64,000 bases of DNA from an uncultured Candidatus Poseidoniales archaeon (GCA_964013535.1 CAXGWS010000004.1:22854-86853), one strand, 5' to 3'; positions 1,909-27,847 are shown, numbered from the stretch's first letter. Notes: generated from the letters alone by a model not told the origin. Translations and numbers: made by a program.

Positions 1909-2021
1909 CTGAGTTGGTATTTGCCGGTTTTTTTGTTAGTTTTATTGCGTTTATGACAAGGTGAACCTTGAAGTTCAATGTCGTTTTGGGTCAAATATCC
2001 CCAAGGGGGATGGTGAATATT

Positions 2022-3026
2022 ATGAGTGACCGCCTTTATGTTGGAATTGACCTAGGAACATACCAATCTACAATCTCTTCGAGTGCTGGTGCAAGCCACA
2101 CTATTGAGACTATTGTAGGTAGACCGAAAGACCCTGTCGCAAGGAATTTCCTTGGACGTGATGTGCTATTTGGCAACGATGCGTTGAAGAATAAGTTGGC
2201 TTGTAATTTATACCGGCCAATGGCCGCCGGTGTTGCCCAAGATGATGAGGCAAACTTGGCAGCTGCTAAGGCATTCGTTTCTCATCTACTAGAAACAGTA
2301 GATCCTGAAGAGTATGACGAAGTTTTCGGAGTCATATGCTCTCCAAGCCACGTCTCGTTCACTGATAAGTCAAACCTTGTTGCAACACTCAGAGGCCAAG
2401 TAAACGCAATCATGGTCGTCACAGAACCCTTTGCAACAGCGTATGGGATTGAAGAAATTGCCGGTTCAATTGTTGTTGATATTGGTGCTGGAACCACTGA
2501 TATCGCTCGTATTCACGGCACCTTCCCTTCCGATGAAGACCAAATCACAATCCAAGAAGCTGGCGATTGGTTAGACTTGGAACTTATGGGATTAGTCGAA
2601 AAGAAATACACTGGTGCTCAAGTTACCAAAGACATGGTACGTCGCTGGAAAGAAGCATCATCATATGTCGGTAGTGAAACAAAAGAAGTCATGGTAGAAC
2701 TTTCAGTAGAAGGCAAGAAACAAGTTGTTGACATTGGCGATTTAATTGTCGAGGCTTGTGAATCTATTGTGCCGCTTATTGCCAATGCGATAAAGAAGAT
2801 TGTTGCGACAGCAGACCCAGAATATCAACCAGTCCTCAGAAACAACATCATTCTCTCTGGTGGCGGCTCTTTAATCGACGGTATTGCTGCAAGAATGGCA
2901 GAGGAAATTTCTGATATCGGTGATGTCAATGTTTGGTGTGTTGAAGATGCAATCAATAGCGTTGCTAACGGCGCACTAAAACTCGCCGGTGAAATGCCAG
3001 ATGATATGTATACTGCAATTAACTAA
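2022..3026 (+). CDS. Actin-family ATPase, MamK/salactin-like
   Basis: Actin-fold motifs GIDLGT, TEPFATAYG, VDIGAGTTD and LSGGGS. Segments resemble MamK (VGxPKD, EDQITxxxAGxxLD, PEYQxxxxxNI). Start moved to ATG 2022, which follows GGGGGATGGTGA. Confidence 0.85.
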   Translation: MSDRLYVGIDLGTYQSTISSSAGASHTIETIVGRPKDPVARNFLGRDVLFGNDALKNKLACNLYRPMAAGVAQDDEANLAAAKAFVSHLLETVDPEEYDEVFGVICSPSHVSFTDKSNLVATLRGQVNAIMVVTEPFATAYGIEEIAGSIVVDIGAGTTDIARIHGTFPSDEDQITIQEAGDWLDLELMGLVEKKYTGAQVTKDMVRRWKEASSYVGSETKEVMVELSVEGKKQVVDIGDLIVEACESIVPLIANAIKKIVATADPEYQPVLRNNIILSGGGSLIDGIAARMAEEISDIGDVNVWCVEDAINSVANGALKLAGEMPDDMYTAIN

Positions 3027-3079: not shown

Positions 3080-4390
3080 ATGATTGGGAAAGTTCAAGAG
3101 TGGTTGATTACCGATAGGCGTCGTATGACAGTCGGCTCTTCGTCACCCAGCGGGATAAAACGTGTTGGTGATACCTCATCTGAAGAGCGAGCCGCATTAG
3201 AAGGAATGTTGCAAGGTTACCCTGTTGAGCAACTTGTTGAGGAAGTGTTAATCGCTTGGGACGAGTTGGCAAAAAGAAATGATGAGATGGTTTCGGTCAA
3301 ACAGCGGTTGCGCGTACTTGAATTGGATTTGGCGGAAAGAGAGGATATGGTCGCACCAGAAGTCGCTCGAATGAATGATTTAGAAACTGAGCTTGAAGAG
3401 CGTAGAAGTCAAATGGTTCACCTTGAAAGATTATTATCCGATGCTAGGCAGGACTTAGCCGCTCAGCAGTCTTCATTATCAAATGAAGAAAAAATACGCC
3501 TTGAAGACGAAGTTGATGCTTTGAAAGGTCTGACCTCTGAACAAGATGAAGTAATAGGTGAAATGGAGGGGAGAATTTCTCAAATGGTTGAAGCGCTTGA
3601 GAGGGCTGCTGATGCTGGTTTAACCTCTGTCACGGCTGACGAGGTAAGGAATTTAAAGTCTCAAGTTGACAATATGACCAAACAATACGAGGTCGAAGCG
3701 TCAGCAAATAAGGCACTTGAGGAAGAGCGCCAGCGACTACGAGATATTGCAGATCGCTTAAGAGGCCTCTTAGATGCCCGTGATAACAGATTAACTGAGC
3801 TTGAAGAACAATTGGAGCGCGTTATGCAGGGACCACGTTCGGTCTCTGCGGAACATGATTACTTAGTCGAGCAAATTGAAGAATTAAAACGCAGGCTGCT
3901 TGAAAGAAATCGAGAATATGAATCCCTACGTCGAAGGGAAAGACGCCTACACAGTGATGTCTTTGAAAGAGATGAAAGAATACAACAAATGTCTCTAACA
4001 ATGAGTGATTTGGAGTCTGCACTTCAAGATAGGACTGCTGAATTAAGAGAGTTGGAAAATATCAGAGAGACAATGTCAAACGAATTAGACTCGGTCCGAA
4101 GAGGGGAGCGTACTCGAGAAGTCGTTGGAAGAGTATTTGCCGATTCATTGTCCTTAGTTAGAGGCCATGATGAGCGTGAAATGATGAGAGAGGCTTATGC
4201 TAATTCTCCAGATGTTGAAAGGAAGTTAGCAACACCAGAACTTGACGATATGGCAAGTTTGGCTGAGGGTGGTAGAGTAGAACTCAATGTTGAAGAAACG
4301 GTAATTGAGCCTGGAATGGAAGTAGATACTAATCGTCCATCTGCTCCAGGTGGCAGTGGTGATCCTGTTATCTTCGAAGATGAAGATTGA
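3080..4390 (+). CDS. Long coiled-coil protein with an acidic C-terminal tail, function unknown
   Basis: About 290 aa of E/R/L-rich heptad-like sequence; no Walker A motif; 53 bp downstream of the actin gene on the same strand. Confidence 0.75.
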   Translation: MIGKVQEWLITDRRRMTVGSSSPSGIKRVGDTSSEERAALEGMLQGYPVEQLVEEVLIAWDELAKRNDEMVSVKQRLRVLELDLAEREDMVAPEVARMNDLETELEERRSQMVHLERLLSDARQDLAAQQSSLSNEEKIRLEDEVDALKGLTSEQDEVIGEMEGRISQMVEALERAADAGLTSVTADEVRNLKSQVDNMTKQYEVEASANKALEEERQRLRDIADRLRGLLDARDNRLTELEEQLERVMQGPRSVSAEHDYLVEQIEELKRRLLERNREYESLRRRERRLHSDVFERDERIQQMSLTMSDLESALQDRTAELRELENIRETMSNELDSVRRGERTREVVGRVFADSLSLVRGHDEREMMREAYANSPDVERKLATPELDDMASLAEGGRVELNVEETVIEPGMEVDTNRPSAPGGSGDPVIFEDED

Positions 4391-4497
4391 ATATTGGCGA
4401 ACCGCCTTTTTCAATGGCGTTAGTTTATACAATAATTCATATCATTGGGTATTTGGTTGTTACATCTAGTTGCCAATGGCCGCCATGGGGTTTGGAA

Positions 4498-6105
4498 GTG
4501 GGAAAATATAGGTTTGATATTGGTAATCTCGTTATGTGTAACCTCGGAGAAAGGGGTTGGAAACTTGGTAGGGTTATCGCCCTCGATTACCGTGAAAGCA
4601 ACTGGGAAGATGGCGATGTTGCCCCATACCAAGTGGCCCTTGAAGAAGACCGCACACTGATTTATGTCCCAATCGATGATGCCCGCTTCTGTCGACAAGC
4701 AACGGAAGAAGATTTGAATATTCTAATTAGAAAAGATGCCTTAGCACGTAATGATTCCAAAATTGATAAATCTGGAGAAGTGGATTTAACCAATAATCAG
4801 CTAATATGCAACGAATCAATTGATTTTTCTAACTACAGAAACGGGCGTTGTGATTGCTGTAACGATTGCCCAAAGGCATGGACTTATGCCGAATTGTACA
4901 GTGAGCATTACCGTTGTGCAACCCGCAATGGTTTGAAGATTACAAGATTCGAAGATAACCTTGGAACTATATCTGTTGGAGATAACATAAACCATGAGCG
5001 TAATGAGTCGATACCTTGTGAAAGTGGTTTCCTCCAAGCGCCTACTTTGGTAAGGTTGCCTCCAGGGATTATATTCTCAGATGATGGTTCCATACAAGGA
5101 GAGGTATTATATGACCCGCATCGAGAAGAAAATTATGATGTTAGATTCGTCGCAGTAAGTACATTGATGTGGGATTCTGCTGCTGTTGGGATTGTTCGTT
5201 ATGAAATTTCATTCAGTGTTCAAAATAACCGCCCTCCGGCTGAATTCGATAAACAAGCTTTCGAATCTGACCAAGCGAAATCTCGTAAGGTTGCTAGAAA
5301 ACTCGTTGATTCATTGAATAGTGATTGGTTGAAATGGGAAAATGGCACTTTAGATAATTTATCCACTTGCCAAACCATGGGAAATACCCTGCGTGAGTTG
5401 AGGGTTTTATTGGAAGACAATCCAAGACTGGATAACGGTAAGTGGTGGGGCCACCTTGGTGGCTATCACATGAATGTTCACAAATTGTTAGATAATGCCC
5501 TATTTGAATGTGAATTATACTTAGGGTATGCGCTAACCTTTGGTGATGATGATGTCAAGTATTATGCCGAGCAGAATCTAAAAGGTTGCTACAATAAACG
5601 ATTATTGGAAGCTGCGCGATTCATGTGGATGGATGGCATAGAGTATATGTTACAGGAACAATGGACTCAAGCAATAGAACTGTTTCGTCTCGCAGCCAAA
5701 AAGAAGGAGGGTTGGGGATGGGCGGTCAATTATGGTGATATTTGGTTAAGTGAGGCTGTAGCAACGATAATACAGAATTGTGAAATTGATGGTGTTGGCT
5801 TAACTAAAGAAGTATTAGAAAGAGTAAACCAACTCATTTTGCAATGTGTGAAGAGAACAAATGATTCAAGGGTTTTTGGCTCTTATGGCCATCCTTGGGC
5901 TAGTGAAATAGAGGTTGCTCTCAAATCATATGGTGAATTGACTCAAGAAAGCAAGGATACCGAAAATTGGCTGAAAGAATTGAAGGCCCGGACTGTTTAT
6001 TGGTGCTCCCAAGTATTAGCCGGCATGTCACCATTTCCCCCACAAGAGAGGCCGCGAAGGGAATCTGCTGAAGCACTTATCGACCGCTTACCAAAGCACA
6101 ACTAA
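4498..6105 (+). CDS. Hypothetical multidomain protein (SH3-like N-terminal module, Cys cluster, Ig-like segment, helical C-terminus)
   Basis: ORF 4387-6105, with a probable GTG start at 4498. N-terminal YRFDIG..V.C..G..GW..G.V....Y.E..W......PYQV.L module; CDCCNDC cluster; LPPGIIFSDDGSIQG resembles He_PIG Ig repeats. Confidence 0.6.
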   Translation: MGKYRFDIGNLVMCNLGERGWKLGRVIALDYRESNWEDGDVAPYQVALEEDRTLIYVPIDDARFCRQATEEDLNILIRKDALARNDSKIDKSGEVDLTNNQLICNESIDFSNYRNGRCDCCNDCPKAWTYAELYSEHYRCATRNGLKITRFEDNLGTISVGDNINHERNESIPCESGFLQAPTLVRLPPGIIFSDDGSIQGEVLYDPHREENYDVRFVAVSTLMWDSAAVGIVRYEISFSVQNNRPPAEFDKQAFESDQAKSRKVARKLVDSLNSDWLKWENGTLDNLSTCQTMGNTLRELRVLLEDNPRLDNGKWWGHLGGYHMNVHKLLDNALFECELYLGYALTFGDDDVKYYAEQNLKGCYNKRLLEAARFMWMDGIEYMLQEQWTQAIELFRLAAKKKEGWGWAVNYGDIWLSEAVATIIQNCEIDGVGLTKEVLERVNQLILQCVKRTNDSRVFGSYGHPWASEIEVALKSYGELTQESKDTENWLKELKARTVYWCSQVLAGMSPFPPQERPRRESAEALIDRLPKHN

Positions 6106-6138
6106 TCACTGTTTTAGCAACCTTAGGTTGTATCGGAT

Positions 6139-6951
6139 TTAGTTACCAAGCACCGAGCAAATAGATGATATTCGGTCTGATAAGTCTGCCAAATCCGCAG
6201 CATCTTCCGTCAAAGTTCCCGTGACTATCCAATCTGCCCCTGCATCAGCAGCAATCTTCGCCTGTTCTGCAGTTCTTATGCCGCCACCAACAATTAGGGT
6301 AAGTCCTTCAGTGCTTCGAGCAGAGCGTATCAGCTCTGGACTTACTTGTCTGTCAGCGCCGCTTCCTGCTTCGAGATATAATAGTTTGAAGCCATACATT
6401 GCGGCTGTCAATGAATAAGCCTGCACCAGTTCTGTATCATTTGGCATGATTAATTCGGCACTACCGACCTCTCCTACTTTGCCTCCAGGGTGGCACACAA
6501 GGTAACCTGTAGGCAGCGCATCGACGCCAAACTTAGCGAGATATGGCGCTCCGCGCACCTGTTCGCCAACCAAAAATCTTCGATCTGTTGAATTCATTAA
6601 CATCATGAAAGTTATTGCGTCTGCTGCGGGAGAAAGCGCATGTGAACCTCCTGGGAACAAGACTACTGGTACCTTCCAGTAATCTTCGTCGCTATCCGGA
6701 GATTGACTGGCTGCGAAGGCGCGTAATTCGAGACTTTCTTGTATTGCAACGCATGTAGCATGTACTTCTTCATCAGGAGTATCTGTTGAACCACCTACGA
6801 AAATCATTGATGAGCCTGCCTCAATGGCGACACATGCTCGGTCTGCTGCGACTTGTGGGGATTGTTTATCTGGGTCAATTAACGTAATGTGTCTAGTATG
6901 ACCACGTTTTTTTGTGACATAAGACAGAATGGTTTCATCATCCCTACGCAT
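6139..6951 (-). CDS. Geranylgeranylglyceryl phosphate (GGGP) synthase, PcrB family group II
   Basis: HITLIDPDK, FVGGST, VVLFPG, GYLV..PGG.VG.VG, YLEAGSGA, IVGGGIR and GADWIVTG motifs. Confidence 0.93.
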   Translation of the reverse strand: MRRDDETILSYVTKKRGHTRHITLIDPDKQSPQVAADRACVAIEAGSSMIFVGGSTDTPDEEVHATCVAIQESLELRAFAASQSPDSDEDYWKVPVVLFPGGSHALSPAADAITFMMLMNSTDRRFLVGEQVRGAPYLAKFGVDALPTGYLVCHPGGKVGEVGSAELIMPNDTELVQAYSLTAAMYGFKLLYLEAGSGADRQVSPELIRSARSTEGLTLIVGGGIRTAEQAKIAADAGADWIVTGTLTEDAADLADLSDRISSICSVLGN

Positions 6952-7049
6952 GCCAATCGTCTACTCCTTCAACTCACAACGCATATTTATTGCGGAGGTT
7001 AATTTGGTTAAGGTGCCAATCACACAGTTATCAATAAGCACCGTTTGGA

Positions 7050-8828: not shown

Positions 8829-8862
8829 AAACCCCTTGATGTTTTATAAATGCTAACACTCT

Positions 8863-8870
8863 TTTATATA
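8863..8870 (+). promoter_or_regulatory. Probable archaeal TATA box of the proteorhodopsin gene
   Basis: TTTATATA at 8863-8870, 30-45 bp upstream of the candidate ATGs at 8901 and 8916. Confidence 0.5.
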
Positions 8871-8915
8871 CTCAACCCAAAAAACAGCCGATTGAGAAAT
8901 ATGTTTAAATCGAAT

Positions 8916-9698
8916 ATGAAGAGAACATCTAGCCTGCTTTTGATCGGAACCCTCGGCCTCTTGGCTTTAGGAAACGCGTCGGCTGCAACTGGGATACTAG
9001 AAACTGATGATATGGTTGGAGTATCTTTTTGGTTGGCAACTGCAATGATGCTTGCATCTACCGTTTTCTTCATCCTTGAGCGCCAAAATGTAGCGCCAAA
9101 GTGGCGAACATCAATGACCGTTGCTGCACTAGTAACTGGTGTTGCATGGTACCACTACACCTACATGAGAGGACATTGGATCTCCACTGGAGAGTCCCCA
9201 CTAGTCATGAGATACATTGACTGGTTGATTACTGTCCCTCTACAAGTTGCTGAATTCTACCTAATTCTAGCTGCTATCGGTGCTGCAACTGCTGCACTAT
9301 TCTGGAGACTCTTCGGTGCCTCCATTGTTATGCTAGTTGCTGGTTTCCTAGCTGAATCCGGAGAAATGTCCGATGGACTAACCTGGCCATTGTTCGCTGT
9401 TGGTGTAGCCGCATGGATTTACATCATCTACGAGGTCTGGGCTGGTGAAGCAAAGGAAAATGTCAGCGGTGCAAGCGAAGGTACACAATTCGCTTTCAAG
9501 GCAATGGCAATCATTCTAACAGTTGGTTGGGCAATCTACCCAATTGGATTCATCATGGGCGAAGGTGGCGACGCTGGCGATGTAGAGAACCTAAACATCC
9601 TCTACAACATTGCTGACGTAGTCAACAAGACTGCCTTTGGTATGATGGTTTGGTATGCAGCAACAATGGATACCAAGGCATCTGGATCTGAAGAGTGA
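8916..9698 (+). CDS. pop: Proteorhodopsin (DTE proton pump, Q at the spectral-tuning site, predicted blue-absorbing)
   Basis: Signal peptide plus 7 TM helices; RYIDWLITVPLQVAEF (D97/T101/Q105/E108 equivalents); WYHY His75 equivalent; retinal-binding Lys in ADVVNKTAFG. Confidence 0.96.
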   Translation: MKRTSSLLLIGTLGLLALGNASAATGILETDDMVGVSFWLATAMMLASTVFFILERQNVAPKWRTSMTVAALVTGVAWYHYTYMRGHWISTGESPLVMRYIDWLITVPLQVAEFYLILAAIGAATAALFWRLFGASIVMLVAGFLAESGEMSDGLTWPLFAVGVAAWIYIIYEVWAGEAKENVSGASEGTQFAFKAMAIILTVGWAIYPIGFIMGEGGDAGDVENLNILYNIADVVNKTAFGMMVWYAATMDTKASGSEE

Positions 9699-17658: not shown

Positions 17659-18531
17659 TCACAATATATTGAATGGGTGAGGTGATTCAAACCTCATTGG
17701 TTCATCAGAATGAGGGTGAAGAAATTCTAACGATGTCGCATGGAGACAAATCCTCGAAAGTGGATTGGTTTGAGCGCCGTGTAATGAGTCCCCAATTATT
17801 GGATGGCCGATGGATTTCAAGGCCATGCGTATTTGATGTCGTCGGCCGGTTTCAATCATAAGGCGGAGCAGTGATGTTTTATCTGTAGATTGTAATAGTT
17901 CCCAGTGGGTGATTGCTTGTTTAGCATATTTGTTAGATTTCGTAGTGAATTTGATGTTGAGTTGCTTATCTTCAACAAGAAATTGTTCGATAGTCCCTTT
18001 GTCATCGGTTAATTCTCCCTCAACCATTGCGTGATATGTTCGGTATACAGACCTTTGAGCAAATTGTTCTTGGAGATATTCTTTGGATTTTTTATCCTTT
18101 GCAAGCAGCATAATTCCTGATGTTTCTTTGTCAAGTCGGTGTACTATGTAGGCCCATGCCTTTGCATTATTCTGTTTAACATAGTCAACGCATTTTGAAT
18201 GGAGGGTTTTTATTTCTAATTTATCAGTGGCGACAGATAATAATTTAGCGGGTTTTTCGACAATTAAAATATAATCATCTTCGTAAATTATGTTAATTGA
18301 GTAGTTACTGAATTTAATTTCAGTCTGTGGTTCTATCTCTTTCTTAGGTTTGTCAAGTAGTTCAAAGGTGTCATCAACACTGAGTAAATATTTAGCTTGA
18401 TGAATTGTTTTTCCATTAATCTCAATACGGCCAATAGAGAGCATTTTTCTTAGTTTATTTGTCGAAGTCTTTGGGAAATTCTGTTTTAGAAATTGGAGTA
18501 ATTCAATTTCCTTAACAATGATTTTCTTCAT
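17659..18531 (-). CDS. RluA-family RNA pseudouridine synthase with an S4-like N-terminus
   Basis: VEKPAKLLS, catalytic HRLDKETSG, TGRRHQIR, GHPIIGDSLHG and LHA motifs; GGTGA SD upstream of ATG 18531. Confidence 0.92.
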   Translation of the reverse strand: MKKIIVKEIELLQFLKQNFPKTSTNKLRKMLSIGRIEINGKTIHQAKYLLSVDDTFELLDKPKKEIEPQTEIKFSNYSINIIYEDDYILIVEKPAKLLSVATDKLEIKTLHSKCVDYVKQNNAKAWAYIVHRLDKETSGIMLLAKDKKSKEYLQEQFAQRSVYRTYHAMVEGELTDDKGTIEQFLVEDKQLNIKFTTKSNKYAKQAITHWELLQSTDKTSLLRLMIETGRRHQIRMALKSIGHPIIGDSLHGAQTNPLSRICLHATSLEFLHPHSDEPMRFESPHPFNIL

Positions 18532-18539
18532 TATTTCAC

Positions 18540-19745
18540 CTACAAGAGTATAATTCTGCAAATATCGCCTTGCCGACCTTTTGCTTCGGGTTCAATAAAT
18601 GTCAAACCATCACTCATGGCAATACCTGCAATATTACCTGATCCTTGGTGACCTTTTAGTCTGGCATAGGTTTTACCGGATTTTTGAAAAAGTTGGACTC
18701 GTCTAAAGGTAGTAAAATCGTCTTGAGTCTTTATGTCTTCATCAAGTATTGCAAAGGTGTATTTATTGTGAATATCTTTTGAATTGGTTATTGCTGTTAA
18801 CCATTTTGCTACTATCGCTCTAAACACTACGTGACTGCTCACTGGGTTTCCCGGCAAACCAAAAATAGGTGTATTATTCCAAGTCCCGAAAATCGGTGGT
18901 GAACCTGGTCGCATCTTAACACGCCAAAATTTGATCTCGCCTTCTTGCTCCATTAAAATCCTAACAAAATCTCGGTCACCCATAGAAACACCACCTGATG
19001 TAATGATGCAATCATATTCTGCTGAGGCTTTGTTTAGGACAGCGCGTAGTGTATCTACATCATCTACTACACTTGGAAATCTTATTGCTTCATGCCCATA
19101 TAGTTGCACTAATGCAGATAAACCATAAGAGTTTGATTCATAGATTTGCCCATATTCTAACTCCTCAGTTAAACTTTTCAGCTCATCTCCTGTTGATATT
19201 ATAGCAATTCTTAATTTGCAATAGACCGTTACTTCCGCAACGCCTGCAGCAGCACTGAGAGAGATTCTCTCTGGAGTCATTATATCGCCTTGAGAAAAAA
19301 TGGTTTCGTTTTCAGCAAAATTCTCGCCGAGTCTTCTGATAAAATGCGGCTTAGAGGGTTCTGACAAAGTTACTGTTTCACCTTCAACGGAACACGCTTC
19401 TATTGGTAATATCGAATCAGCCCCTTTTGGTATGGGTGCGCCAGTCATAATTCTAACCGCTTCGCCATCAGAGATTTGTTTAAAATCGTGAGAACCAGCA
19501 TTAGATGTCCCAACGATAGTAAGTTTTGTTGGTGGATTTAATGTGTTTTCATAAATAACTGCAAAACCATCCATGGAAGAATTATCAAAACTAGGATCAT
19601 TGACTCTTGCTTTTACTTCGGATGATAAAATACGGTTTAGGGATTGTTCAATAGGAATTGTTTCCGATGGAAGTGAAATTAAGGAATTTTTGCATAAGTC
19701 ATTTGCTTCACCCAAAGAGATGTAGTATGGGTATGGTTTGACCAT
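18540..19745 (-). CDS. moeA: Molybdopterin molybdotransferase (gephyrin-like)
   Basis: PSFDNSSMDGFAV, RIMTGAPIPKGADS, STGDEL, YESNSY, TSGGVSMGDRD and GLPGNPVS motifs. Confidence 0.93.
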   Translation of the reverse strand: MVKPYPYYISLGEANDLCKNSLISLPSETIPIEQSLNRILSSEVKARVNDPSFDNSSMDGFAVIYENTLNPPTKLTIVGTSNAGSHDFKQISDGEAVRIMTGAPIPKGADSILPIEACSVEGETVTLSEPSKPHFIRRLGENFAENETIFSQGDIMTPERISLSAAAGVAEVTVYCKLRIAIISTGDELKSLTEELEYGQIYESNSYGLSALVQLYGHEAIRFPSVVDDVDTLRAVLNKASAEYDCIITSGGVSMGDRDFVRILMEQEGEIKFWRVKMRPGSPPIFGTWNNTPIFGLPGNPVSSHVVFRAIVAKWLTAITNSKDIHNKYTFAILDEDIKTQDDFTTFRRVQLFQKSGKTYARLKGHQGSGNIAGIAMSDGLTFIEPEAKGRQGDICRIILL

Positions 19746-19770
19746 GTGTCCCCCCAAAACCAAATTTACT

Positions 19771-20559
19771 TTGATATTATGGACTGGATTAGGGATAAAT
19801 CTGCAATATGAGTTATATTTGCTGTTTGCTGGATTGGTAATAATCGCAGCATTATACTCAAGTGTTGGACATGGTGGAGCATCTGGATATTTGGCACTGC
19901 TTTCGCTAACATCGTATGGAGTTATGAGTCATGTATGGTTGAAACAACATGTTTGGGTGATGAATTTAGTTGTTGCATCTATTGCTTTTTATCACTATAA
20001 TAAATTGGGTTATCATAATACTAAACTTACCTTTCCATTCATAATTGCTAGCATTCCAATGGCCTTTATTGGTGGTGCAATAGCAGTTGATGCTGAGATC
20101 TATGATATCTTACTGTCACTAACATTGATTTGGGCATCATATAAAATTCTCAATATAAGTGATTTTTCTAACATTAAAGCGAGCCATCCTGGGAGTTTAG
20201 AATCGTATCTTTGGGGCGGTGGAATTGGGTTTTTTAGTGGGATTATTGGTGTTGGTGGGGGTATCTTTCTTTCCCCAATTATACTATTGAAGGGTTGGGC
20301 TGACGTTAAAACTGCTGCAGCTACGGCAGCAATTTTCATCTTTGTTAACTCGCTTTCTGGATTATTTGGAATGGCAGCAGCAGCACAATTACAAATTGAT
20401 TATTCTCTACTATCAATCCTAATAATTGCGATAATTATTGGTGGATTTTTGGGTTCGTTATATGGTGCTAAATATGCCGGTAATAAGAGGGTGAGGAGTT
20501 TATTGGCGGTGGTTTTGATAGTTGCTGCTATGAAGCGTGTGATCGAATTAGTTGTTTAA
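19771..20559 (+). CDS. Sulfite exporter TauE/SafE family membrane protein (start uncertain)
   Basis: SSVGHGGASGY and GFFSGIIGVGGGIFLSP repeats; about 8 TM helices. Confidence 0.85.
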   Translation: MILWTGLGINLQYELYLLFAGLVIIAALYSSVGHGGASGYLALLSLTSYGVMSHVWLKQHVWVMNLVVASIAFYHYNKLGYHNTKLTFPFIIASIPMAFIGGAIAVDAEIYDILLSLTLIWASYKILNISDFSNIKASHPGSLESYLWGGGIGFFSGIIGVGGGIFLSPIILLKGWADVKTAAATAAIFIFVNSLSGLFGMAAAAQLQIDYSLLSILIIAIIIGGFLGSLYGAKYAGNKRVRSLLAVVLIVAAMKRVIELVV

Positions 20560-20566
20560 TGATTAA

Positions 20567-21796
20567 TTAATTTTGAAAAATGTTGTGTAGTTTTTCCGCT
20601 TGTTGCTGTGGTGAAAGTTTCAATTCTTCGATTCTTTTTCTACCAAACTCGGTCCATGATTTTCGAATCTCAGGTAACTTTGCTTGTGATAAGGCTTGAT
20701 GCCAACTTCTCACATCGTTGCGTTCGAGTAATCGACCACATTTTCCATCAATAATAGAATCTCTGAAGCCACCGTCGTTAACAAAAATGGCGGGGGTTCC
20801 AATTGAAAATGCCTCTATTGGACTCAAGCCAAATGGTTCTTTATGAGCCATACTTACAACCGCCAATGATTGTTGGATTAATATCGATAATTGCTGAGAA
20901 GATAATCTTGGTGCAATCCAAAGTTCAACTCCATTATCATCTGCATGGGATCTTAAGATTTGAAGCGATTCTGTAGTTCCGCCGCCTACATGAGCAACGG
21001 ATATTTTGCTGTCTGATAACATAGAAATCACCTCCATGGTGCCTTTTGCCCAGTTAGCGGTACCGATAGTAACAACATAATTCATTTCTATTGAGTTGGT
21101 AAAGGGGTTCTCGACGCCGTTTATGTTATCTGAATATTCTTTAGAATCGACGCAAGGATGTAAGTATGAGCAGTCGATTCCATAGACTTGTTTAATCCGT
21201 GCTGAAGTGTATGAGGAATTACCAGATATTACTGATTTTTTCCGGTTTGAGAACTTCTTGACAATTTTCAAATCGTTTTTCCTTCCTTTAGAAAGTAGTA
21301 TATTTGTTAATATCTTAGGTCTTTTCAAATTCCCATATAAGTCCCTGTGTAATGAATCCTCGTGATATCCTCGATGTGGTTCTAACAGATGTAAGTGCGC
21401 TTTTTTATCATAAGGGATCATTTCTAAAAAACCCAAATACCCATCGCCGCTAACAACATGAAAATAGTCGAATTTGGGTATGTCTGATATTAAATTCGGA
21501 CAGCTCTTCCACGCTTTAATCGATGTTGTATGGATTTTATCGAGGATTTGTGATAAACTGGTGTTAGGTGGTTGCCATGGTTGATTTGGTTGGTATAATC
21601 TGATTCCATTTTTATTACAAACGGATTCTAAATCTTGGCATGATGATAGTGTTGCAACTGATATGTCGTACCAATTTGTCAAATGAGGTAATACGCGCAA
21701 TAAATCTCGCTCTGCACCCCCCATCCTCGATATGATGCCTTTGGCAATTAGTAGCGATGGTTTTCCACTAGGCACATTTGTAGGGTGGGGTTTCAA
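20567..21796 (-). CDS. Glycosyltransferase family 4 (GT-B fold)
   Basis: GGAER N-terminal motif; EPFGLSPIEAFSIGTP donor-binding motif. Confidence 0.88.
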   Translation of the reverse strand: MKPHPTNVPSGKPSLLIAKGIISRMGGAERDLLRVLPHLTNWYDISVATLSSCQDLESVCNKNGIRLYQPNQPWQPPNTSLSQILDKIHTTSIKAWKSCPNLISDIPKFDYFHVVSGDGYLGFLEMIPYDKKAHLHLLEPHRGYHEDSLHRDLYGNLKRPKILTNILLSKGRKNDLKIVKKFSNRKKSVISGNSSYTSARIKQVYGIDCSYLHPCVDSKEYSDNINGVENPFTNSIEMNYVVTIGTANWAKGTMEVISMLSDSKISVAHVGGGTTESLQILRSHADDNGVELWIAPRLSSQQLSILIQQSLAVVSMAHKEPFGLSPIEAFSIGTPAIFVNDGGFRDSIIDGKCGRLLERNDVRSWHQALSQAKLPEIRKSWTEFGRKRIEELKLSPQQQAEKLHNIFQN

Positions 21797-21941
21797 CTAT
21801 ATTTCAACAACTGCACAATGTATGAAAAATTGTTGAAATAATGGAGGATATAGGTTTATATTGTAGACTGGGAAGAAAATAACAATACAAAATTATACCC
21901 GCTTTGGAAAGTAGGTTCGTGTAATAGGAAGTTGTGGAAGA

Positions 21942-22667
21942 ATGACTAGGCTAGTGTATATTGGAAACGATAAATGGCACAGTTGTTTCGATTCGTTGAT
22001 TAAAGATGAAGGTTTAGAAATCGTTCATTCCTTCATACCAAATGATTCATTCTACCTGAAGAATATGTGTGAGCAAAATAATTTAAATTACACATTAACG
22101 GAAAATGTAAACCATAATTTTGAAATTATCTCGACGTTGGATTTTGATATTTACTTGGTAATAGGCCACCCATTTCTACTTGATGAAAGGCTACTAAATC
22201 ATAAACAAGGAATTGGTTTCCATCCCTCACTATTACCAAAGAGGCGAGGGCGGGCACCCATAAATTGGGCCATTATTGACGGACTGAAAGAATCGGGAGT
22301 TACCCTTTTTTATCTGGCTGAAGGAATCGATAATGGTGGTATAATTTTTCAGGAAAAGTTCGCTATTAATGACCAGGATACTGCCGCGATTTTGATCAGG
22401 AAGATTTGTGCAATTTTGGTTAACAATTTGAAAAATATTCTGCATAGTTGGCCTGAATTACAAGTTATTCAACAAGACGAAAAAGAAGCAACTTATACAA
22501 TTAAACGAAATCCTAGCGATGGTGAGATAACCAGAGATATGAGTGCAAAGGATGCAGAAAGGATGGTTAGAGCGCTTAACGGACCTTACCCATCGGCTTA
22601 CATCACTATGAATAATGGAGAACGACTATACATTAACGAGGCGTCAATAAATGAGTTCGAAGAGTAA
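21942..22667 (+). CDS. Formyltransferase (Fmt/ArnA-N-terminal-like), probably a sugar N-formyltransferase
   Basis: GFHPSLLPKRRGRAPINW, SGVTLF and GIDNGGI motifs; C-terminal RALNGPYPSAY; sits inside a glycan cluster. Confidence 0.8.
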   Translation: MTRLVYIGNDKWHSCFDSLIKDEGLEIVHSFIPNDSFYLKNMCEQNNLNYTLTENVNHNFEIISTLDFDIYLVIGHPFLLDERLLNHKQGIGFHPSLLPKRRGRAPINWAIIDGLKESGVTLFYLAEGIDNGGIIFQEKFAINDQDTAAILIRKICAILVNNLKNILHSWPELQVIQQDEKEATYTIKRNPSDGEITRDMSAKDAERMVRALNGPYPSAYITMNNGERLYINEASINEFEE

Positions 22668-23436
22668 TTTTCCCTATACCCCATTCTCATATGATGAATA
22701 TAGACATATTCTACAACAATTGTTAGATAACTTACCGATATTAGACTATGCTGAGATAAATAATGAAACTGGTAGTTTCTGTATCATTAGGCATGATGTT
22801 GAATTTTCTTTAGAAAGAGCTTTGAAACTAGCAATTATTGAACATGAAATGGATGTTAAGGCTAGTTATTTTATTCAACTTAACAACAGTACATACAATG
22901 CAATATCTCATGAAAGTCTTAACATAATAAGAAAAATTAGTGAATTAGGACATAAGATTGGTATTCATTTTTCTCCAAGTAGTAGCAACGTAGATTTAGT
23001 TAAACAAGAGTTTTACTTTTTCAGAGATTTGTTTGAGAATAGATTGAATACGACAATTGACCGTTTCTCATTTCATAGACCCAATTTAAATCCACAATTA
23101 TTACAAAATAACATAAAAATTGACGGTGTGATAAATGCTTACGGTGATTTATATTTCGAATATTTCGATGGTAATGTTCCAAAAAATCCGGCGATAAAAT
23201 ATATTTCTGATTCAAATCATCAGTGGAAGTACGGTCATCCATTAGATGTAATTGAATCTGATTGTAAAAAAGTTCATATCTTAATACATCCATTTTCTTG
23301 GTCAAAGATTGGAGGGGATAATTTGGCTAATTATCAGTCTTTATTGGAAGAAAAAAATAATAGTTTAATGATTTCAATTAATTCAGAAATATCAAATTTT
23401 CCATTTGATGAAATAATGAAAAATAATGATATTTGA
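22651..23436 (+). CDS. Polysaccharide deacetylase-like (NodB/CE4-related) protein
   Basis: RHDVEFSLERAL, ASYFI, GHKIGIHF, FSFHRP and LIHPFSW motifs, typical of deacetylase-like proteins in glycan clusters. Confidence 0.65.
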   Translation: MSSKSNFPYTPFSYDEYRHILQQLLDNLPILDYAEINNETGSFCIIRHDVEFSLERALKLAIIEHEMDVKASYFIQLNNSTYNAISHESLNIIRKISELGHKIGIHFSPSSSNVDLVKQEFYFFRDLFENRLNTTIDRFSFHRPNLNPQLLQNNIKIDGVINAYGDLYFEYFDGNVPKNPAIKYISDSNHQWKYGHPLDVIESDCKKVHILIHPFSWSKIGGDNLANYQSLLEEKNNSLMISINSEISNFPFDEIMKNNDI

Positions 23437-23447
23437 ACAGTTTAAAT

Positions 23448-24287
23448 TTAGTTATGAAAAATTATCCCATCATCACCATGTCCTGAATTAAACATTTGTT
23501 CGAGTGTGGCAACGCCAACAGTGATTGGGTATGTAGAATCCTTTGATGGAATGGTGAGTTGGGTCAAATGTTTTGGTATGTTGTCGACAAAATCTGTTAA
23601 AGTAACACCTGCTACATTAGTTATGTGATGGGGGAGAAATTCAACAATTAGGGTGTTTGTATTTGAGAGAATTTCTTTCATCCCCCGCATGGCAAAATAT
23701 TCTGAACCTTCTATATCTATGAGTACTAGATCAAAATTTTTGTTTGAAAGATATGAATCGAGTGAATAGGCTTCTACACCTATAACCTCTGGATTGTCAT
23801 ATGTATACATGTAGTTATTGTTTACTGGGACTCTTTTACTGCCGCCAGAATTGACTGTATTCAACTGAAATTGTATTATCTCTTCCTTTTCACTTGCGGC
23901 TATATTATGGGCAACAATGTTTGAAACATTATTTAATTTTATATTCGTTTCAAATAGTTTGAAATTATTTGGGTTTGCTTCTATTGCAGTTACTTCTGAA
24001 CATATTTTAGCGACTGGTATTGCTAAGGAACCAATATGAGCACCAACAATCAATACCTTAGAATCATTGTCAATATAATTTGATATTCGATTGATTTCGT
24101 CGATTCCATACTCGCCTTTTGTCCTTAGTTTAGCGCCTACTTCAAGATCTGCGGCGTCAACAAGAAAGGTCCCGTTTTTTGTGTTTACAGTTAGTGCCGA
24201 AACATTACCATCAAGGCGTTTTTTTAACCGTTTAGATTTTCTATTTTTCAAGAAAAAATTTACTCGCCAATAAAGCGATTTAAGCAT
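23448..24287 (-). CDS. FkbM-family methyltransferase
   Basis: VGAHIG SAM motif, IEANPNNF and LIDIEGSEY motifs. Confidence 0.88.
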   Translation of the reverse strand: MLKSLYWRVNFFLKNRKSKRLKKRLDGNVSALTVNTKNGTFLVDAADLEVGAKLRTKGEYGIDEINRISNYIDNDSKVLIVGAHIGSLAIPVAKICSEVTAIEANPNNFKLFETNIKLNNVSNIVAHNIAASEKEEIIQFQLNTVNSGGSKRVPVNNNYMYTYDNPEVIGVEAYSLDSYLSNKNFDLVLIDIEGSEYFAMRGMKEILSNTNTLIVEFLPHHITNVAGVTLTDFVDNIPKHLTQLTIPSKDSTYPITVGVATLEQMFNSGHGDDGIIFHN

Positions 24288-24296
24288 TATAAATCC

Positions 24297-24602
24297 TCAA
24301 TCGAATTTCATTACGTGATTGCATTCAGGATATGAACAGCTCACTGTGTATCTCTGTTTCTTGGGTTTAGGAATTTTTAGACGGCAGCCACACATATCAC
24401 ATTGAACAACAAGAGTTTCGGGTTCTGATGGTTTCGGAGCATCTTCTAATACTCGTCCAGCTGCAGATTTTGACCAGCCTAATGAATCAGTATAATCGTC
24501 GGTCTTCTTGATTTTATTTTGTCTTAATGACAGGCGCATCTTTCTCTTCTTTTTACGTGGTTTTTGGTTACCGCCACTTCGAGTTGGTCTTTTCCTTGCC
24601 AT
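24297..24602 (-). CDS. Small basic protein with a C-terminal zinc ribbon
   Basis: K/R-rich N-terminus; CDMC...CSYPEC Cys pairs. Confidence 0.7.
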   Translation of the reverse strand: MARKRPTRSGGNQKPRKKKRKMRLSLRQNKIKKTDDYTDSLGWSKSAAGRVLEDAPKPSEPETLVVQCDMCGCRLKIPKPKKQRYTVSCSYPECNHVMKFD

Positions 24603-24705
24603 GCCAATCGAATACCGGTAAGGGTATAACTATTCAATCGCTTCGCAATATAGGTTGTATGATATTTTACATTATTTGATAAACTAAAGCGATTAATTCA
24701 TCTTC

Positions 24706-25227
24706 ATGCTAAAACGATTAGTTGTCTTGCTTGTATTCGCAGTCACAATGTCTGGAGATATTGGTCTGTTGCAGGATGAAGGAGAAGTACACACTGTTAC
24801 AGTAGATGGTTTTGGCACAAATATTAGGTTCGTCCCTGATACTTTAACAATAAATGAAGGTGACACTGTTAGGTTTCTTTGGAGTGGTCAGTTATTACCA
24901 CACAATGCTATTGAAGTAAATGAGTTGTTCAATTCTGGAGACGCAATGAGAAATGTTGACTATACATACACATTCAATTATACTCAATCTGGAGTGTATG
25001 AGTTTTACTGTGAGCCTCATAGAGACCTTGGAATGCTTGGTCAAATTACCGTTAATGATGTACAATTAAACAACACCACTGTAGAAACTGGGATTGAAAC
25101 TAAAAATGATGATGTGTTAAATCAAAATGATTCAAAAATTAGTACGAATTTACTATTGGCCGCTGGTGTATGTGTTATTGGTTTGATTTATTTTAGAACA
25201 AGAATTGATGATATTGCTAAAATTTAA
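24706..25227 (+). CDS. Plastocyanin/halocyanin-like type-1 blue copper protein, membrane anchored
   Basis: Signal peptide; PHNA His ligand; YCEPHRDLGM Cys/His/Met ligands; C-terminal TM helix. Confidence 0.9.
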   Translation: MLKRLVVLLVFAVTMSGDIGLLQDEGEVHTVTVDGFGTNIRFVPDTLTINEGDTVRFLWSGQLLPHNAIEVNELFNSGDAMRNVDYTYTFNYTQSGVYEFYCEPHRDLGMLGQITVNDVQLNNTTVETGIETKNDDVLNQNDSKISTNLLLAAGVCVIGLIYFRTRIDDIAKI

Positions 25228-25229
25228 CA

Positions 25230-26543
25230 TTATTCAATGATGTATGAATGACCATTCTCTGGTGAATGGGTGTTGATTCCATTGCTCTCCAATTCCTCTA
25301 CTAAGTGGGGTCTGGAATTATTGGGATCTGTGTGGTAAATTATAACGTCTTGTGGATCACATGAATAAACGAATTCAGTTATTTCTTTGTGACCTGCGTG
25401 GGTTGAGAATGAAAATTTTTCCCAATTAAGGGGTATGTTAACTTCTTTACCAAAAATGTCTAAACGTGACTTGGTTTGCAGTTTTCTACCTCCTGTGTCT
25501 TTTGCCTGATAACCAGTAAAGAAAATTTCATTTTCCATATTATGCCTTAGCCTGTTGAGATACCATATTGCTGGGCCGCCTTGCAACATACCTGATGTTG
25601 ATATGATTACATCGGCTTCAAGGGCTTTTTTCCTATCAGATTTACTTGATACTCTTTTTGACCAGTTCCAAGCATCATTAAGTGCAGATGGGTTACGTAA
25701 AAATTGATTGTGTTCAAGGTGTAATTTGGTTATTCTTTTACCCATACCATCAATGTGAACATCAAGCTCGGGACAATTCTGGTGGAGTCGCATCATCATA
25801 TCTTGCGTTCTACCGTTGGCAAAGGCTGGAATTAGAATAGTACCACCATTATCTGTTACTCTTATTACATTGTCAATAAACCTGGATAGTTCCAATTCTT
25901 GGTCTGCATGGTTCCTCCCGCCATAAGTTCCTTCAATGAATAATATATCTACATCCTCGGGTTTTGCTCCTTTTGTTAATGGAGAGTTTCTAGTATCAAA
26001 ATCGCCAGTGAAAAGAATATTTTTGTCATCAGTTTCTACCTTTAACATACCTGCACCAGGAATGTGACCGGCGTTGAGTAATGTTAATTTCCAATTTTCT
26101 TGTATCCATGAATCGTTAAAATCATGGGTAATCCATGAATCCATAGCAATATCAATGTCTCTTTTATCCCAAGGAAGGGGATATTTTTCAATACTGCTTA
26201 TTTTGTAACAATCATTCCACATCATACGAGATATTTCTGCAGTGAGCTCTGTACCATGTAAATTGGTGTTATAATTAGCAGGCAGCCATGGTGCCATTCC
26301 TAAATGATCAACATGTGAATGAGTGATAATTGCATTTTTTACAAATGGTGCTTCTTTTGGATATTTTGGAGGTGAAGTGGGAGCAATTCCATAATCTAGA
26401 AGCAGTCTATTTTTCGTTTTATCTTCTAAGACTACACCAACGTTACCTACTTCATTTCCACCACCAAGATAGTGATAGCGATACCCTGAATTAATCTGAT
26501 CTTCAGAATATTCTGAGGTCCTACCTGGGTTGTAAAATACCAT
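25230..26543 (-). CDS. MBL-fold beta-CASP ribonuclease (aCPSF-like)
   Basis: GGGNEVG, LLDYG, THSHVDH, GHIPGA, FTGD, EGTYG, TSGMLQGG and FSTHAG motifs. Confidence 0.9.
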   Translation of the reverse strand: MVFYNPGRTSEYSEDQINSGYRYHYLGGGNEVGNVGVVLEDKTKNRLLLDYGIAPTSPPKYPKEAPFVKNAIITHSHVDHLGMAPWLPANYNTNLHGTELTAEISRMMWNDCYKISSIEKYPLPWDKRDIDIAMDSWITHDFNDSWIQENWKLTLLNAGHIPGAGMLKVETDDKNILFTGDFDTRNSPLTKGAKPEDVDILFIEGTYGGRNHADQELELSRFIDNVIRVTDNGGTILIPAFANGRTQDMMMRLHQNCPELDVHIDGMGKRITKLHLEHNQFLRNPSALNDAWNWSKRVSSKSDRKKALEADVIISTSGMLQGGPAIWYLNRLRHNMENEIFFTGYQAKDTGGRKLQTKSRLDIFGKEVNIPLNWEKFSFSTHAGHKEITEFVYSCDPQDVIIYHTDPNNSRPHLVEELESNGINTHSPENGHSYIIE

Positions 26544-26600
26544 TCTGTATCATTATTGCTAAATTGTCATGTAACATTTAGTTGATGGATGAATAATAGA

Positions 26601-26843
26601 TCCCACCCCTTTATTTCTACTGGAAAAAAATTTTACAGATTGAGTATCTAATTTCTATTTGTTGACGTAATAATTTATAGACTACTTTCAAGATAAAACA
26701 GATGCCGTTTTCACTATTTCTTATTTTTTTACCATTTTCACTCTTAGTAAATTACAGTATCATTTTCAGTGGAAATAGGGGGGTCTTAACTTGTATACAT
26801 CCAATAATAGAAAAATCGGAAAAAACGTTTCCAGTGGGATAAA
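26601..26843. other. Candidate chromosomal replication origin (oriC): inverted ORB pair flanking an AT-rich DUE-like spacer, plus a mini-ORB
   Basis: Minus-strand TTCCAGTAGAAATAAAGGGGT at 26605-26625; plus-strand TTTCAGTGGAAATAGGGGGGT at 26764-26784; TTCCAGTGGGATAAA at 26829-26843; 138 bp spacer with 33 G+C (hand count). Confidence 0.75.
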
Positions 26844-26918
26844 TTTTCAATCAAAAATCGATTATTGTTTCTTTAGGAACCACATAAAATCAAAATGTAA
26901 TTGATTGTTAGCGGTTTT

Positions 26919-27125
26919 ATGGCAAGAGTTGTCGACCATGTCTTTCACGTTGACGAAGACAAATGCTATGGCTGCGGTGCCTGCATAGCTCTATGTCCAG
27001 TCAATGTTCTAGATCTTCATAACAGAATAGCTGTCGTTGATGAAAGTAATTGTACTCACTGTGAACTCTGTATCCCATCATGTCCAGTATTTGCATTAGA
27101 CATAATACCGGAGATTACCGTATGA
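26919..27125 (+). CDS. 2x[4Fe-4S] dicluster ferredoxin
   Basis: CYGCGACIALCP and CTHCELCIPSCP motifs. Confidence 0.93.
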   Translation: MARVVDHVFHVDEDKCYGCGACIALCPVNVLDLHNRIAVVDESNCTHCELCIPSCPVFALDIIPEITV

Positions 27126-27847
27126 CCACTATTGCTATTATTGGTAACAATCTAGTTGGCTTGTTTTGTGCAGGAATACTATCAGATAATAATGAAGTAT
27201 TGATAATAAATTCGGAATTAGAGTTGGGTTTTCCGGCAAGTTTTCCAGGCTCATCTAATGATATAAATTTTCTAAAAAACTTTCTTTCAGATCAACAAAT
27301 TGATCAATTATTTATCAAAGATTCTCTAGATTCTAGTAATTTTAGGTCTGAGTGGTTCAGTAAACTAGTTACTCATAAATTAGCAAAAAAAGGGGTATTG
27401 ATTGCCAATAGAACAAGAATATCTGATATCAATAATGTCGATGGCAACTTAATATTATCAACAACTGGAGGCTATCTTAATGTTGAAAATTTTGAATGTA
27501 AAACAATTCTAGATTTTTCTGAATATAGTTACAATCCACTTGCAAGTAAAACTCATCAATACAAATTAACTGATCGTAATATTATCAAACCAAAAATTGA
27601 TACTAAACAATTTTTTGTCGGAATATGTTTGGAAAGCGAAGCACATAACCTTTCAAAATATCAGTTAAAACTTCCAAGAAATGATGGTTTGGTAGAAACT
27701 TGGTATGACAAAGATAACTTAGAATCACCAAATAAAGGATGGATAGAATCAAAAACCGTCAAAGCTTATTTTGAATCTAAGATTATGCTTGTAGAAGATT
27801 ACTTTATCAAAGCCCAAGAAATATGTAAAAATATGGTGATACAATGA
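27122..27847 (+). CDS. Divergent, short FAD-oxidoreductase (geranylgeranyl-reductase-like) homolog
   Basis: Degenerate Rossmann start IAIIGNNLVG; ELGFPASFPG; R..F.K.......KKGV.I...TRISDI segment; ATGA overlap with the ferredoxin. Confidence 0.5.
   Translation: MTTIAIIGNNLVGLFCAGILSDNNEVLIINSELELGFPASFPGSSNDINFLKNFLSDQQIDQLFIKDSLDSSNFRSEWFSKLVTHKLAKKGVLIANRTRISDINNVDGNLILSTTGGYLNVENFECKTILDFSEYSYNPLASKTHQYKLTDRNIIKPKIDTKQFFVGICLESEAHNLSKYQLKLPRNDGLVETWYDKDNLESPNKGWIESKTVKAYFESKIMLVEDYFIKAQEICKNMVIQ

Follow-up and report, generated by a model that had tools for sequence, protein, structure and literature searches.

The actin-like protein MamK polymerizes with ATP (PMC5597319) and works with acidic or coiled-coil accessory proteins, namely MamJ/LimJ, McaB, and Mad20/23/25/26 (PMC13170167, PMC12748827). 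BeeR, an actin of the Verrucomicrobiota, also polymerizes with ATP, and it forms three-stranded tubes; the same study already made the point, for the Verrucomicrobiota, that MamK-like actins extend beyond magnetosomes (PMC11929497). The archaeal actin salactin was described as closest to MamK; it aids DNA partitioning and has a long, charged, disordered N-terminal tail (PMC10746226).

Here we compare these systems with an actin-like gene near the start of a 64,000-nucleotide stretch of DNA from an uncultured Candidatus Poseidoniales archaeon (GCA_964013535.1, CAXGWS010000004.1:22854-86853; we will call the whole stretch the window). The Poseidoniales, or marine group II (MGII), are uncultured and globally abundant, and their cell biology is barely known. 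The original prediction, made by reading the DNA, described the gene's product as a MamK- or salactin-like actin in a marine archaeon without magnetosome genes, and suggested that it is an uncharacterized cytomotive filament. We will call this protein the type A actin. Its named homologs are from the Poseidoniales, including both the Poseidoniaceae and the Thalassarchaeaceae, and are annotated as MreB or as hypothetical. The closest locus, whose actin is 96% identical, is from a North Sea Poseidoniales metagenome-assembled genome (MAG). The window also contains archaeal genes, such as those for geranylgeranylglyceryl phosphate (GGGP) synthase, thermosome, geranylgeranyl reductase, 3-hydroxy-3-methylglutaryl-CoA synthase, and proteorhodopsin. 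The host is thus confirmed as a marine MGII archaeon. The protein is also uncharacterized as far as our literature search goes: we found no publication on this family, and none that links MGII or the Poseidoniales with MamK, MreB, or actin-like proteins.

We propose that type A forms ATP-driven filaments and that, together with a coiled-coil protein encoded by the adjacent gene, it makes up a housekeeping system for positioning or scaffolding. Taken as a whole, this proposal is moderately probable.

Family, fold, and conservation of the type A actin

The type A protein matched the NCBIfam profile for MamK with 339.6 bits (E=1.7e-101), which is 125 bits above its score for BeeR (214.3) and 260 bits above its score for MreB (79.1); the scores for salactin, ParM, and HscA were 29.9, 15.8, and 14.6 bits. 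Its sequence matches in the PDB were, in order, MamK (5jyg, E=5e-64), BeeR (8r2n, E=6e-40), MreB (E=1e-12), and then eukaryotic actins. It is 33.7% identical to MamK from strain AMB-1 over 329 amino acids, 32% identical to BeeR, and 26% identical to MreB from E. coli. An AlphaFold2 model of type A has a mean predicted local distance difference test (pLDDT) of 79 and a predicted template-modeling score of 0.80, with low confidence for residues 31-70 (subdomain IB). Foldseek's best match to this model was MamK (5ljv_A, TM 0.85/0.87, E=1.2e-31), as compared to TM scores of 0.76 for BeeR and ~0.75 for MreB, and the top fold matches are all filament formers. Type A also has the motifs of the MamK-like clade: xPKD, a SEPFA-type connect 1, DIGAGTTD, and the C-terminal aromatic motif. 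Judging from these profiles and the predicted structure, type A is an ATPase with an actin fold and belongs to the MamK-like clade in the broad sense, and its closest characterized family is MamK. In particular, the original claim that it is closer to MamK than to MreB agrees with both the bit scores (339.6 vs. 79) and the PDB matches.

But type A falls below the 400-bit cutoff of the curated MamK family (NF040964) and so is not a member of it. On the same model, representatives of the true MamKs score 472-508 bits, other MamK-like proteins from non-magnetotactic lineages score 389-425, a second MGII actin (type B, see below) scores 361, and BeeR scores 226. Type A also falls short of the curated cutoffs for BeeR (NF053558, 530 bits) and for ParM (417 bits), and it lacks the 30-50 amino acid N-terminal extension of BeeR. 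"MamK-like" thus holds in the sense of nearest characterized family, but not as membership in that family. The "salactin-like" part of the original description is weak: type A scored 29.9 bits against a cutoff of 400 (NF053533) and 25.6 bits against a cutoff of 27.1 (PF25229), and salactin is only a remote relative. As for MreB, the specific models (TIGR00904 / NF010539) have cutoffs of 293 and 365.75 bits, and type A scores just 79.1 and 68. The only Pfam models that type A does pass are the broad MreB_Mbl (PF06723, 79.7 bits vs. a gathering cutoff of 27) and Actin. On these scores, the database label of "MreB" or "rod shape-determining protein MreB" is wrong at the level of the family. Models for sugar kinases, FtsA, and Volactin gave no match to type A at E <= 0.01.

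The four motifs for nucleotide binding and hydrolysis (phosphate 1, connect 1 with EP, phosphate 2 with DxGxGT, and adenosine with GGG) are all intact in type A, as originally claimed, and we located every motif that had been quoted within the open reading frame (ORF). Across 42 type A and type B sequences, the invariant residues include G8, D10, L11, G12, and T13 of phosphate 1; E135, P136, and F137 of connect 1; D153, G155, A156, G157, T158, and D160 of phosphate 2; and N275, G280, G281, G282, and S283 of the adenosine motif (Table 1). Other motifs are VGRPKD (residues 32-37), EDQIT (172-176), AGDWLD (180-185), and PEYQ (266-269).

We take the ATG at 2022 as the start codon because the homologs are 334-337 amino acids long and because this agrees with the position of the Shine-Dalgarno-like GGGGGATGGTGA. 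A longer version that starts from TTG at 1968 is possible but unlikely, and we ruled it out by these same two considerations. From the ATG, the protein begins just 4 residues ahead of the first beta-strand, with no N-terminal amphipathic extension and no transmembrane or hydrophobic segment.

Type A is highly conserved. The mean pairwise identity across the Poseidoniaceae and the Thalassarchaeaceae is 87%, and the minimum is 80%. When we searched 1.84 billion representatives of 50%-identity clusters, the whole type A family formed a single cluster, and the next relatives were only 43-45% identical. At syntenic loci, the actins are 84-96% identical, as compared to 55-82% for GGGP synthase, 67-85% for the ATP-binding cassette (ABC) transporter, and 68% for PurQ. 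Type A is the most conserved gene of its neighborhood and is under very strong purifying selection. This constraint covers the whole sequence and not just the active site, which may reflect extensive protein-protein interfaces, as expected for a filament former. "Cytomotive filament" therefore seems a reasonable inference from homology and conservation. We rejected a viral origin, as a scan of IMG/VR found no relatives.

In MamK, changing A278 to aspartate blocks polymerization (5ljw). We considered this position as a marker of the filament interface, but type A has P there and type B has D. We rejected it as uninformative because it varies across the clade.

A coiled-coil protein encoded beside type A

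Downstream sequence was available for 11 type A loci, and in all 11 of them the gene directly 3' of type A, on the same strand, encodes an acidic coiled-coil protein, which we will call the partner. These proteins have 421-436 amino acids and are 65-91% identical to the one encoded in the window. Across the 97 loci that we fetched, the partner was seen at type A loci and at no others, and we found no homologs of it outside MGII or beside bacterial MamK-like genes. Among its 1377 homologs, all those with an organism name are from Poseidoniales/Poseidoniaceae or "Euryarchaeota archaeon." We did not find any coiled-coil gene beside the MamK-like genes of non-magnetotactic bacteria or of Ca. Methanoperedens; MamK-like genes other than type A have coiled-coil neighbors only at probable magnetotactic loci from Desulfamplus and Omnitrophota.

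The partner has a net charge of -40 and is rich in E, R, and L, and its residues 205-375 are nearly invariant. Fourier analysis gave a strong hydrophobic heptad (3.5-residue) signal of 14.5, while the 95th percentile for shuffled sequences was 7.6. AlphaFold2 predicts long helices (residues 34-163, 166-235, and 241-359) followed by a small C-terminal element. The C-terminal tail (..PGGSGDPVIFEDED, as given with the model) is predicted to be disordered, yet it is conserved, with invariant residues R404, P405, P408, G409, G410, G412, D413, P414, V415, D419, and E420. Precomputed Pfam assignments list PF24161/PF28422 for some of the partner's homologs, but hmmscan did not reproduce either of them directly, and these homologs have no other Pfam family.

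We propose that type A binds and hydrolyzes ATP and polymerizes into filaments, as MamK and BeeR do, and would thereby supply a nucleotide-driven polymer. The partner, with its ~330-residue coiled coil, would act as an adaptor, scaffold, or regulator of the actin. Its C-terminal tail, which is acidic and conserved, might be what docks. Comparable roles are played for other actins by MamJ/LimJ, the Mad coiled-coil proteins, and ParR. Given the acidic or coiled-coil accessory proteins of MamK, an actin-plus-adaptor module appears to be the most economical reading of the gene pair. The pair would then be a chromosomal housekeeping module for the cytoskeleton or for positioning, unrelated to magnetosomes, and its cargo might be the nucleoid, or else the membrane and cell shape. 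Both the partnership and the cellular role are what we infer from gene order and sequence.

We also considered that type A might be a DNA-partitioning actin like salactin or ParM, whose dynamically unstable filaments would push or pull copies of the chromosome, while the coiled-coil protein would connect them to DNA. Salactin, which was placed closest to MamK, does aid DNA partitioning (PMC10746226). Furthermore, JGI names the partner as a "chromosome segregation ATPase," and its only HMM (hidden Markov model) similarities are to the coiled coils of SMC and Rad50. But JGI's name arises from coiled-coil similarity to SMC only: these matches are limited to the coiled-coil arm, and their 35-38 bits are far below the cutoffs of 567-729. 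No Pfam family of ATPases (SMC_N, AAA, or ABC_tran) matched the partner, which also lacks a ribbon-helix-helix or helix-turn-helix domain. Between positions 1700 and 4600 of the window, we found no centromere-like iterons around the gene pair, only short chance repeats inside coding sequence. So this does not look like a ParM/ParR/parC cassette, which would have a ParM-family score, an adaptor with a DNA-binding domain, and iterons. And type A is a chromosomal housekeeping gene rather than a plasmid-borne one, with only 29.9 bits on the salactin model and 15.8 bits on the ParM model. Overall, a partitioning actin of this kind seems unlikely.

We think it quite likely that type A polymerizes, but several points weigh against our proposal of a filament with an adaptor. 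Type A has diverged further than any other member of the MamK-like set, with 340 bits on the MamK model instead of 389-425 for the other relatives from non-magnetotactic organisms. The W of the C-terminal ..YW motif is replaced by Y (..MY). The low confidence of the model at residues 31-70 is of concern because the subdomain IB region makes longitudinal contacts in actin-like filaments (PMC11929497). As for the partner, it is linked to the actin by synteny, and synteny is generally conserved in MGII: genes for an S8 peptidase, GGGP synthase, an ABC transporter, and a rhodopsin are also always near type A. Within the gap of 53-98 nucleotides between the two genes is an AT-rich and TATA-like stretch, which might be a separate promoter for the partner. 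The partner has no transmembrane segment and no recognizable DNA-binding domain. We also considered that it might bind along the side of the filament, like tropomyosin, but Fourier analysis found no long-period repeat of charge or of acidic or basic residues that rose above shuffled sequences, so we rejected this idea.

Given its divergence from the other MamK-like proteins, type A might instead be an actin-fold ATPase that does not polymerize, such as a chaperone-like protein or a regulatory enzyme, and the gene next to it might be unrelated. The actin fold does include many enzymes that do not form filaments. However, the scores of type A for Hsp70 and HscA are negligible (15.8 and 14.6 bits), the models for sugar kinases and FtsA gave no match, and the best fold matches are filament formers. 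Nor did type A group with FtsA, Hsp70, or sugar kinases, which the original prediction had named as a contrary outcome, in the profile, PDB, or Foldseek comparisons. The high conservation across the entire sequence also points to extensive protein-protein interfaces. We think that a non-polymerizing enzyme is very unlikely.

The MamK-like radiation and a second Poseidoniales paralog

By scanning the species genomes in GTDB, we found that the Poseidoniales encode a second MamK-like actin, type B, with 341-345 amino acids and 46-48% identity to type A (for instance, L050:5986-7011, L014:~6013-7035, and L090:7001-8038). Both type A and type B are found in both MGII families, and the type B proteins have a mean identity of 81%. 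At the level of species, the two types co-occur in Ca. Poseidonia alphae (type A is P0390 and type B is on the UBA255 contig L014). The two types have 105 invariant positions in common and 53 fixed differences. Type B, with 361 bits on the MamK model, also passes Pfam's Salactin (57 bits), its scores of 57-65 bits on the salactin models are above those of type A, and it scores 32 bits on the Volactin model, where the cutoff is 35.

To place these proteins, we built neighbor-joining trees, with bootstrap, from 82 sequences and 333 alignment columns, using E. coli MreB as the outgroup and five distance corrections. Clade A and clade B each had 100% support, and they were sisters with 83% support (80-92% under the five distance corrections). 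The derived motif KDP[VI]ARNFL, which is common to both types, agrees with this grouping. We saw no indels in the alignment that were common to A and B, and a 2-residue insertion is found in type B alone. The pair nests in a large and mostly non-magnetotactic radiation of MamK-like proteins, with members from the Planctomycetota, Thermoanaerobaculia, Gemmatimonadota, Nitrospirota, Rokubacteria, Rhodothermales, Gammaproteobacteria, and Ca. Methanoperedens. The true MamKs (AMB-1 MamK, P0166, and P0195) form a separate subclade that does not include A or B, and BeeR lies outside of the MamK-like radiation. Deep nodes had support of under 60%, so a bacterial origin of the MGII actins by transfer is no more than plausible. 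The original prediction had called for a phylogeny with MamK, salactin, MreB, ParM, and crenactin; ours has MamK and MreB and puts the MGII pair within the MamK-like radiation. Salactin, crenactin, and Ta0583 are set apart by their HMM scores and by their absence from the top PDB matches rather than by the tree.

Because this radiation is so broad and its lineages are mostly non-magnetotactic, MamK-like actins without magnetosomes are common. So the original description of a MamK-like actin without magnetosome genes is true here, but it is less unusual than its title implied, as such actins are common in non-magnetotactic bacteria (PMC11929497). Among the 45 ORFs of the 64-kb window that we scanned with Pfam, none had a magnetosome-type domain, which agrees with the original claim for this window.

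Could type A nevertheless position magnetosomes, or an analogous membrane organelle, as a true MamK does? MamK is its best-scoring family and fold, and in having an acidic coiled-coil neighbor it is reminiscent of MamJ and the Mad proteins with their actins (PMC13170167, PMC12748827). But the ORFs of the window include no cation diffusion facilitator transporter, no magnetochrome, no LemA/MamQ, no MamA-type tetratricopeptide repeat protein, and no MamE/O protease. Instead, the flanks of the 11 related type A loci consist of the same housekeeping genes. Type A misses the MamK cutoff and does not branch with the true MamKs, and the coiled-coil ORFs that adjoin the MamK-like gene of Desulfamplus are not similar to the partner. 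Also, to our knowledge, no magnetotactic archaeon has been described. A role in magnetosomes is extremely improbable.

Type B has a different neighbor. At 26 of 27 loci, the gene directly upstream, on the same strand, encodes an acidic protein of 338 amino acids that has CxxC zinc ribbons at both its N- and C-terminus (for instance, L090:5888-6904), which is a candidate for a private partner of type B. This gene is preceded by genes for a thiolase and for a DUF35-like OB-fold protein, and genes for an isopentenyl-phosphate-kinase-like protein and a polyprenyl synthase are close by. Type B and the zinc-ribbon protein might be a parallel system that has diverged from type A and its partner. In two public assemblies, a "Yoonia sp." MAG (L019) and a "Deltaproteobacteria" single-amplified genome (AH-558-G13, L021), we noticed type B actins with the zinc-ribbon neighbor that are 84-87% identical to other type B proteins. 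These are probably mis-binned or co-sorted DNA from Poseidoniales.

Both paralogs adjoin genes for isoprenoid lipids (type A is beside GGGP synthase, and type B is near the kinase-like and polyprenyl synthase genes), and this is the sole hint of a role in the membrane or in cell shape. Type A could be an actin like MreB or volactin that scaffolds the envelope or lipid biogenesis. Consistent with this, type A passes Pfam's MreB_Mbl and databases annotate it as MreB; besides GGGP synthase it has an MsbA-like ABC exporter as a neighbor; and type B lies in a run with the thiolase and the DUF35-like protein. Furthermore, an archaeal actin, volactin, is able to control cell shape (PMC10869688). However, the specific MreB models fail (79 vs. 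293 bits and 68 vs. 365.75 bits), the window has no mreC, mreD, or rodZ, and type A has no amphipathic N-terminus or other segment for binding the membrane. The Volactin model gives no match for type A at E <= 0.01, and type B does not reach its cutoff (32 vs. 35 bits). The adjacency to lipid genes might be mere conserved synteny within MGII, and GGGP synthase is on the opposite strand from type A. We consider an actin of this kind to be improbable.

We also offer a broader scenario, tentatively, as a possibility that we would not bet on. The Poseidoniales might have a dedicated two-filament actin cytoskeleton whose MamK-like ancestor, of a bacterial type, was acquired once and then duplicated. 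Each paralog would have its own private partner, and the filaments would organize an unseen intracellular structure or the biogenesis of the membrane and its isoprenoid lipids.

Two other groups within the radiation deserve mention. The archaeon Ca. Methanoperedens encodes a MamK-like actin that scores 395 bits on the MamK model (L017:5953-7002 and L078:511-1509). Because it branches apart from the MGII clades, MamK-like actins may have entered the archaea on more than one occasion. And a group of proteins with 523-1232 amino acids (P0122-P0136) has a C-terminal MamK-like domain with a score of 414 bits and 43-45% identity to type A. The N-terminal part has a conserved domain of ~100 amino acids (..KKxRFREWTKSLG..) and then a long low-complexity linker that is rich in K, E, S, and P. 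Among the fetched loci, their closest relatives are from the Planctomycetota (46-50% identity). They appear to be uncharacterized actins that are fused to their own adaptor-like extension.

Features of the window and comparison with known systems

Table 1. Features of the type A locus, and other regions of the window that we comment on. Positions are counted from the first nucleotide of the window.
Feature	Position	Strand	Remarks
Shine-Dalgarno-like GGGGGATGGTGA	2005..2016	+	Ends 5 nt before ATG 2022; read directly in the sequence
Type A MGII MamK-like actin gene	2022..3026	+	Intact ORF, 334 aa + stop; HMM, PDB, and fold matches
Phosphate-1 GIDLGT	2043..2060	+	aa 8-13; aligns with MamK GIDLGT and MreB SIDLGT
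Connect-1 EPFATAYG	2424..2447	+	aa 135-142; E135 aligns with the Glu of the MamK SEPF motif
Phosphate-2 DIGAGTTDI	2478..2504	+	aa 153-161; aligns with phosphate-2 of MamK, BeeR, and MreB
Adenosine-binding NNIILSGGGS	2841..2870	+	aa 274-283; aligns with the adenosine motif of MamK, BeeR, and MreB
Partner gene, acidic coiled-coil protein	3125..4390	+	421 aa from ATG 3125; 436 aa from ATG 3080
Disordered acidic C-terminal tail of the partner, ..RPSAPGGSGDPVIFEDED	4328..4387	+	Residues 402-421, pLDDT < 50; candidate actin-docking peptide
Cys-rich ORF	4387-6105	+	572 aa; TTG start overlaps the partner's stop codon
Rhodopsin gene	8850-9698	+	At a conserved syntenic position
Low-G+C region	18000-30000		G+C 0.33-0.38, vs. 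0.42-0.45 elsewhere in the window

The Cys-rich ORF that follows the partner gene encodes one N-terminal hydrophobic segment. It has no match in Pfam or NCBIfam, and its exact product is in no database record. None of the 11 other type A loci, not even that of the strain with the 96% identical actin, has this ORF at the syntenic position, and it resembles an insertion specific to this strain that separates the partner gene from GGGP synthase. Farther along, the rhodopsin is just 33-37% identical to its counterparts in other MGII loci, including in the near-identical strain L087, which suggests that the type of rhodopsin was replaced at a fixed locus. By eye, its sequence RYIDWLITVPLQVAEF includes a proton-pump motif of the DTE type, and Q occupies the site for spectral tuning. 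The low-G+C region includes genes for a glycosyltransferase, a formyltransferase, and an FkbM-type methyltransferase, as well as several ORFs with no Pfam match, and looks like a variable island for surface glycans. A scan of the window with Rfam found no structured RNAs.

Beyond what was originally predicted, our analysis adds the conserved coiled-coil partner, the second MGII paralog, and how common MamK-like actins are in non-magnetotactic bacteria. What is new is a lineage-specific pair of subfamilies of MamK-like actins, with private partner proteins, in an archaeal host; the sequences themselves were already public. A near-invariant actin, a lineage-specific partner, and a sister paralog offer a way into the cell biology of MGII via recombinant proteins, with no need for culturing. 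They also make the "magnetosome actin" lineage look like a widespread, general-purpose family of filaments, which extends the picture from BeeR and salactin, and they correct the systematic labeling of these proteins as MreB. Should the architecture of the filaments or the binding of the partner prove new, then this would be a further archaeal cytoskeletal system, beside crenactin, salactin, volactin, and the Asgard actins. And if the two-filament scenario is correct, then the archaeal system and its accessory proteins would be new, and its filament architecture might be as well.

How does type A compare to the characterized actins? MamK (NF040964; 5ljv, 5jyg) is similar in its length, its order of domains, its W/Y/R-PKD, EPF, DxGAGTTD, and GGGS motifs, and its lack of an N-terminal extension, and it is also accompanied by an acidic accessory protein. 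The filaments of MamK are two-stranded and non-staggered. But MamK is from bacteria, is encoded in a magnetosome cluster, and works with MamJ, while the MGII partner is an unrelated coiled-coil protein. BeeR (NF053558; 8r2n) is the second-best match by both sequence and structure. Like type A, it is related to MamK, is found in non-magnetotactic hosts, and is conserved in one lineage; unlike type A, it has a disordered N-terminal extension of 30-50 amino acids and an insertion after the EPF motif. Salactin, from Halobacterium and the Methanotecta, is also an archaeal actin whose closest bacterial family is MamK and which has no role in magnetosomes. It differs from type A in its long, charged N-terminal tail and its host, as type A is from the Thermoplasmatota. 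MreB has the actin fold and a similar size, and type A passes the broad Pfam model for it, but MreB has mreCD/rodZ as its genomic context and an element that binds the membrane, while type A has the MamK-specific motifs.

The MGII partner can be compared to MamJ/LimJ, Mad20/23/25/26, and ParR, which are also accessory proteins encoded beside actins. Like them, the partner is an acidic, elongated, and non-enzymatic protein, in keeping with a general design of actin plus adaptor, but it has no sequence similarity to them in the loci tested. It has neither the DNA-binding fold of ParR nor a transmembrane segment. And whereas the acidic repeats of MamJ are hypervariable, the MGII partner is far more conserved.

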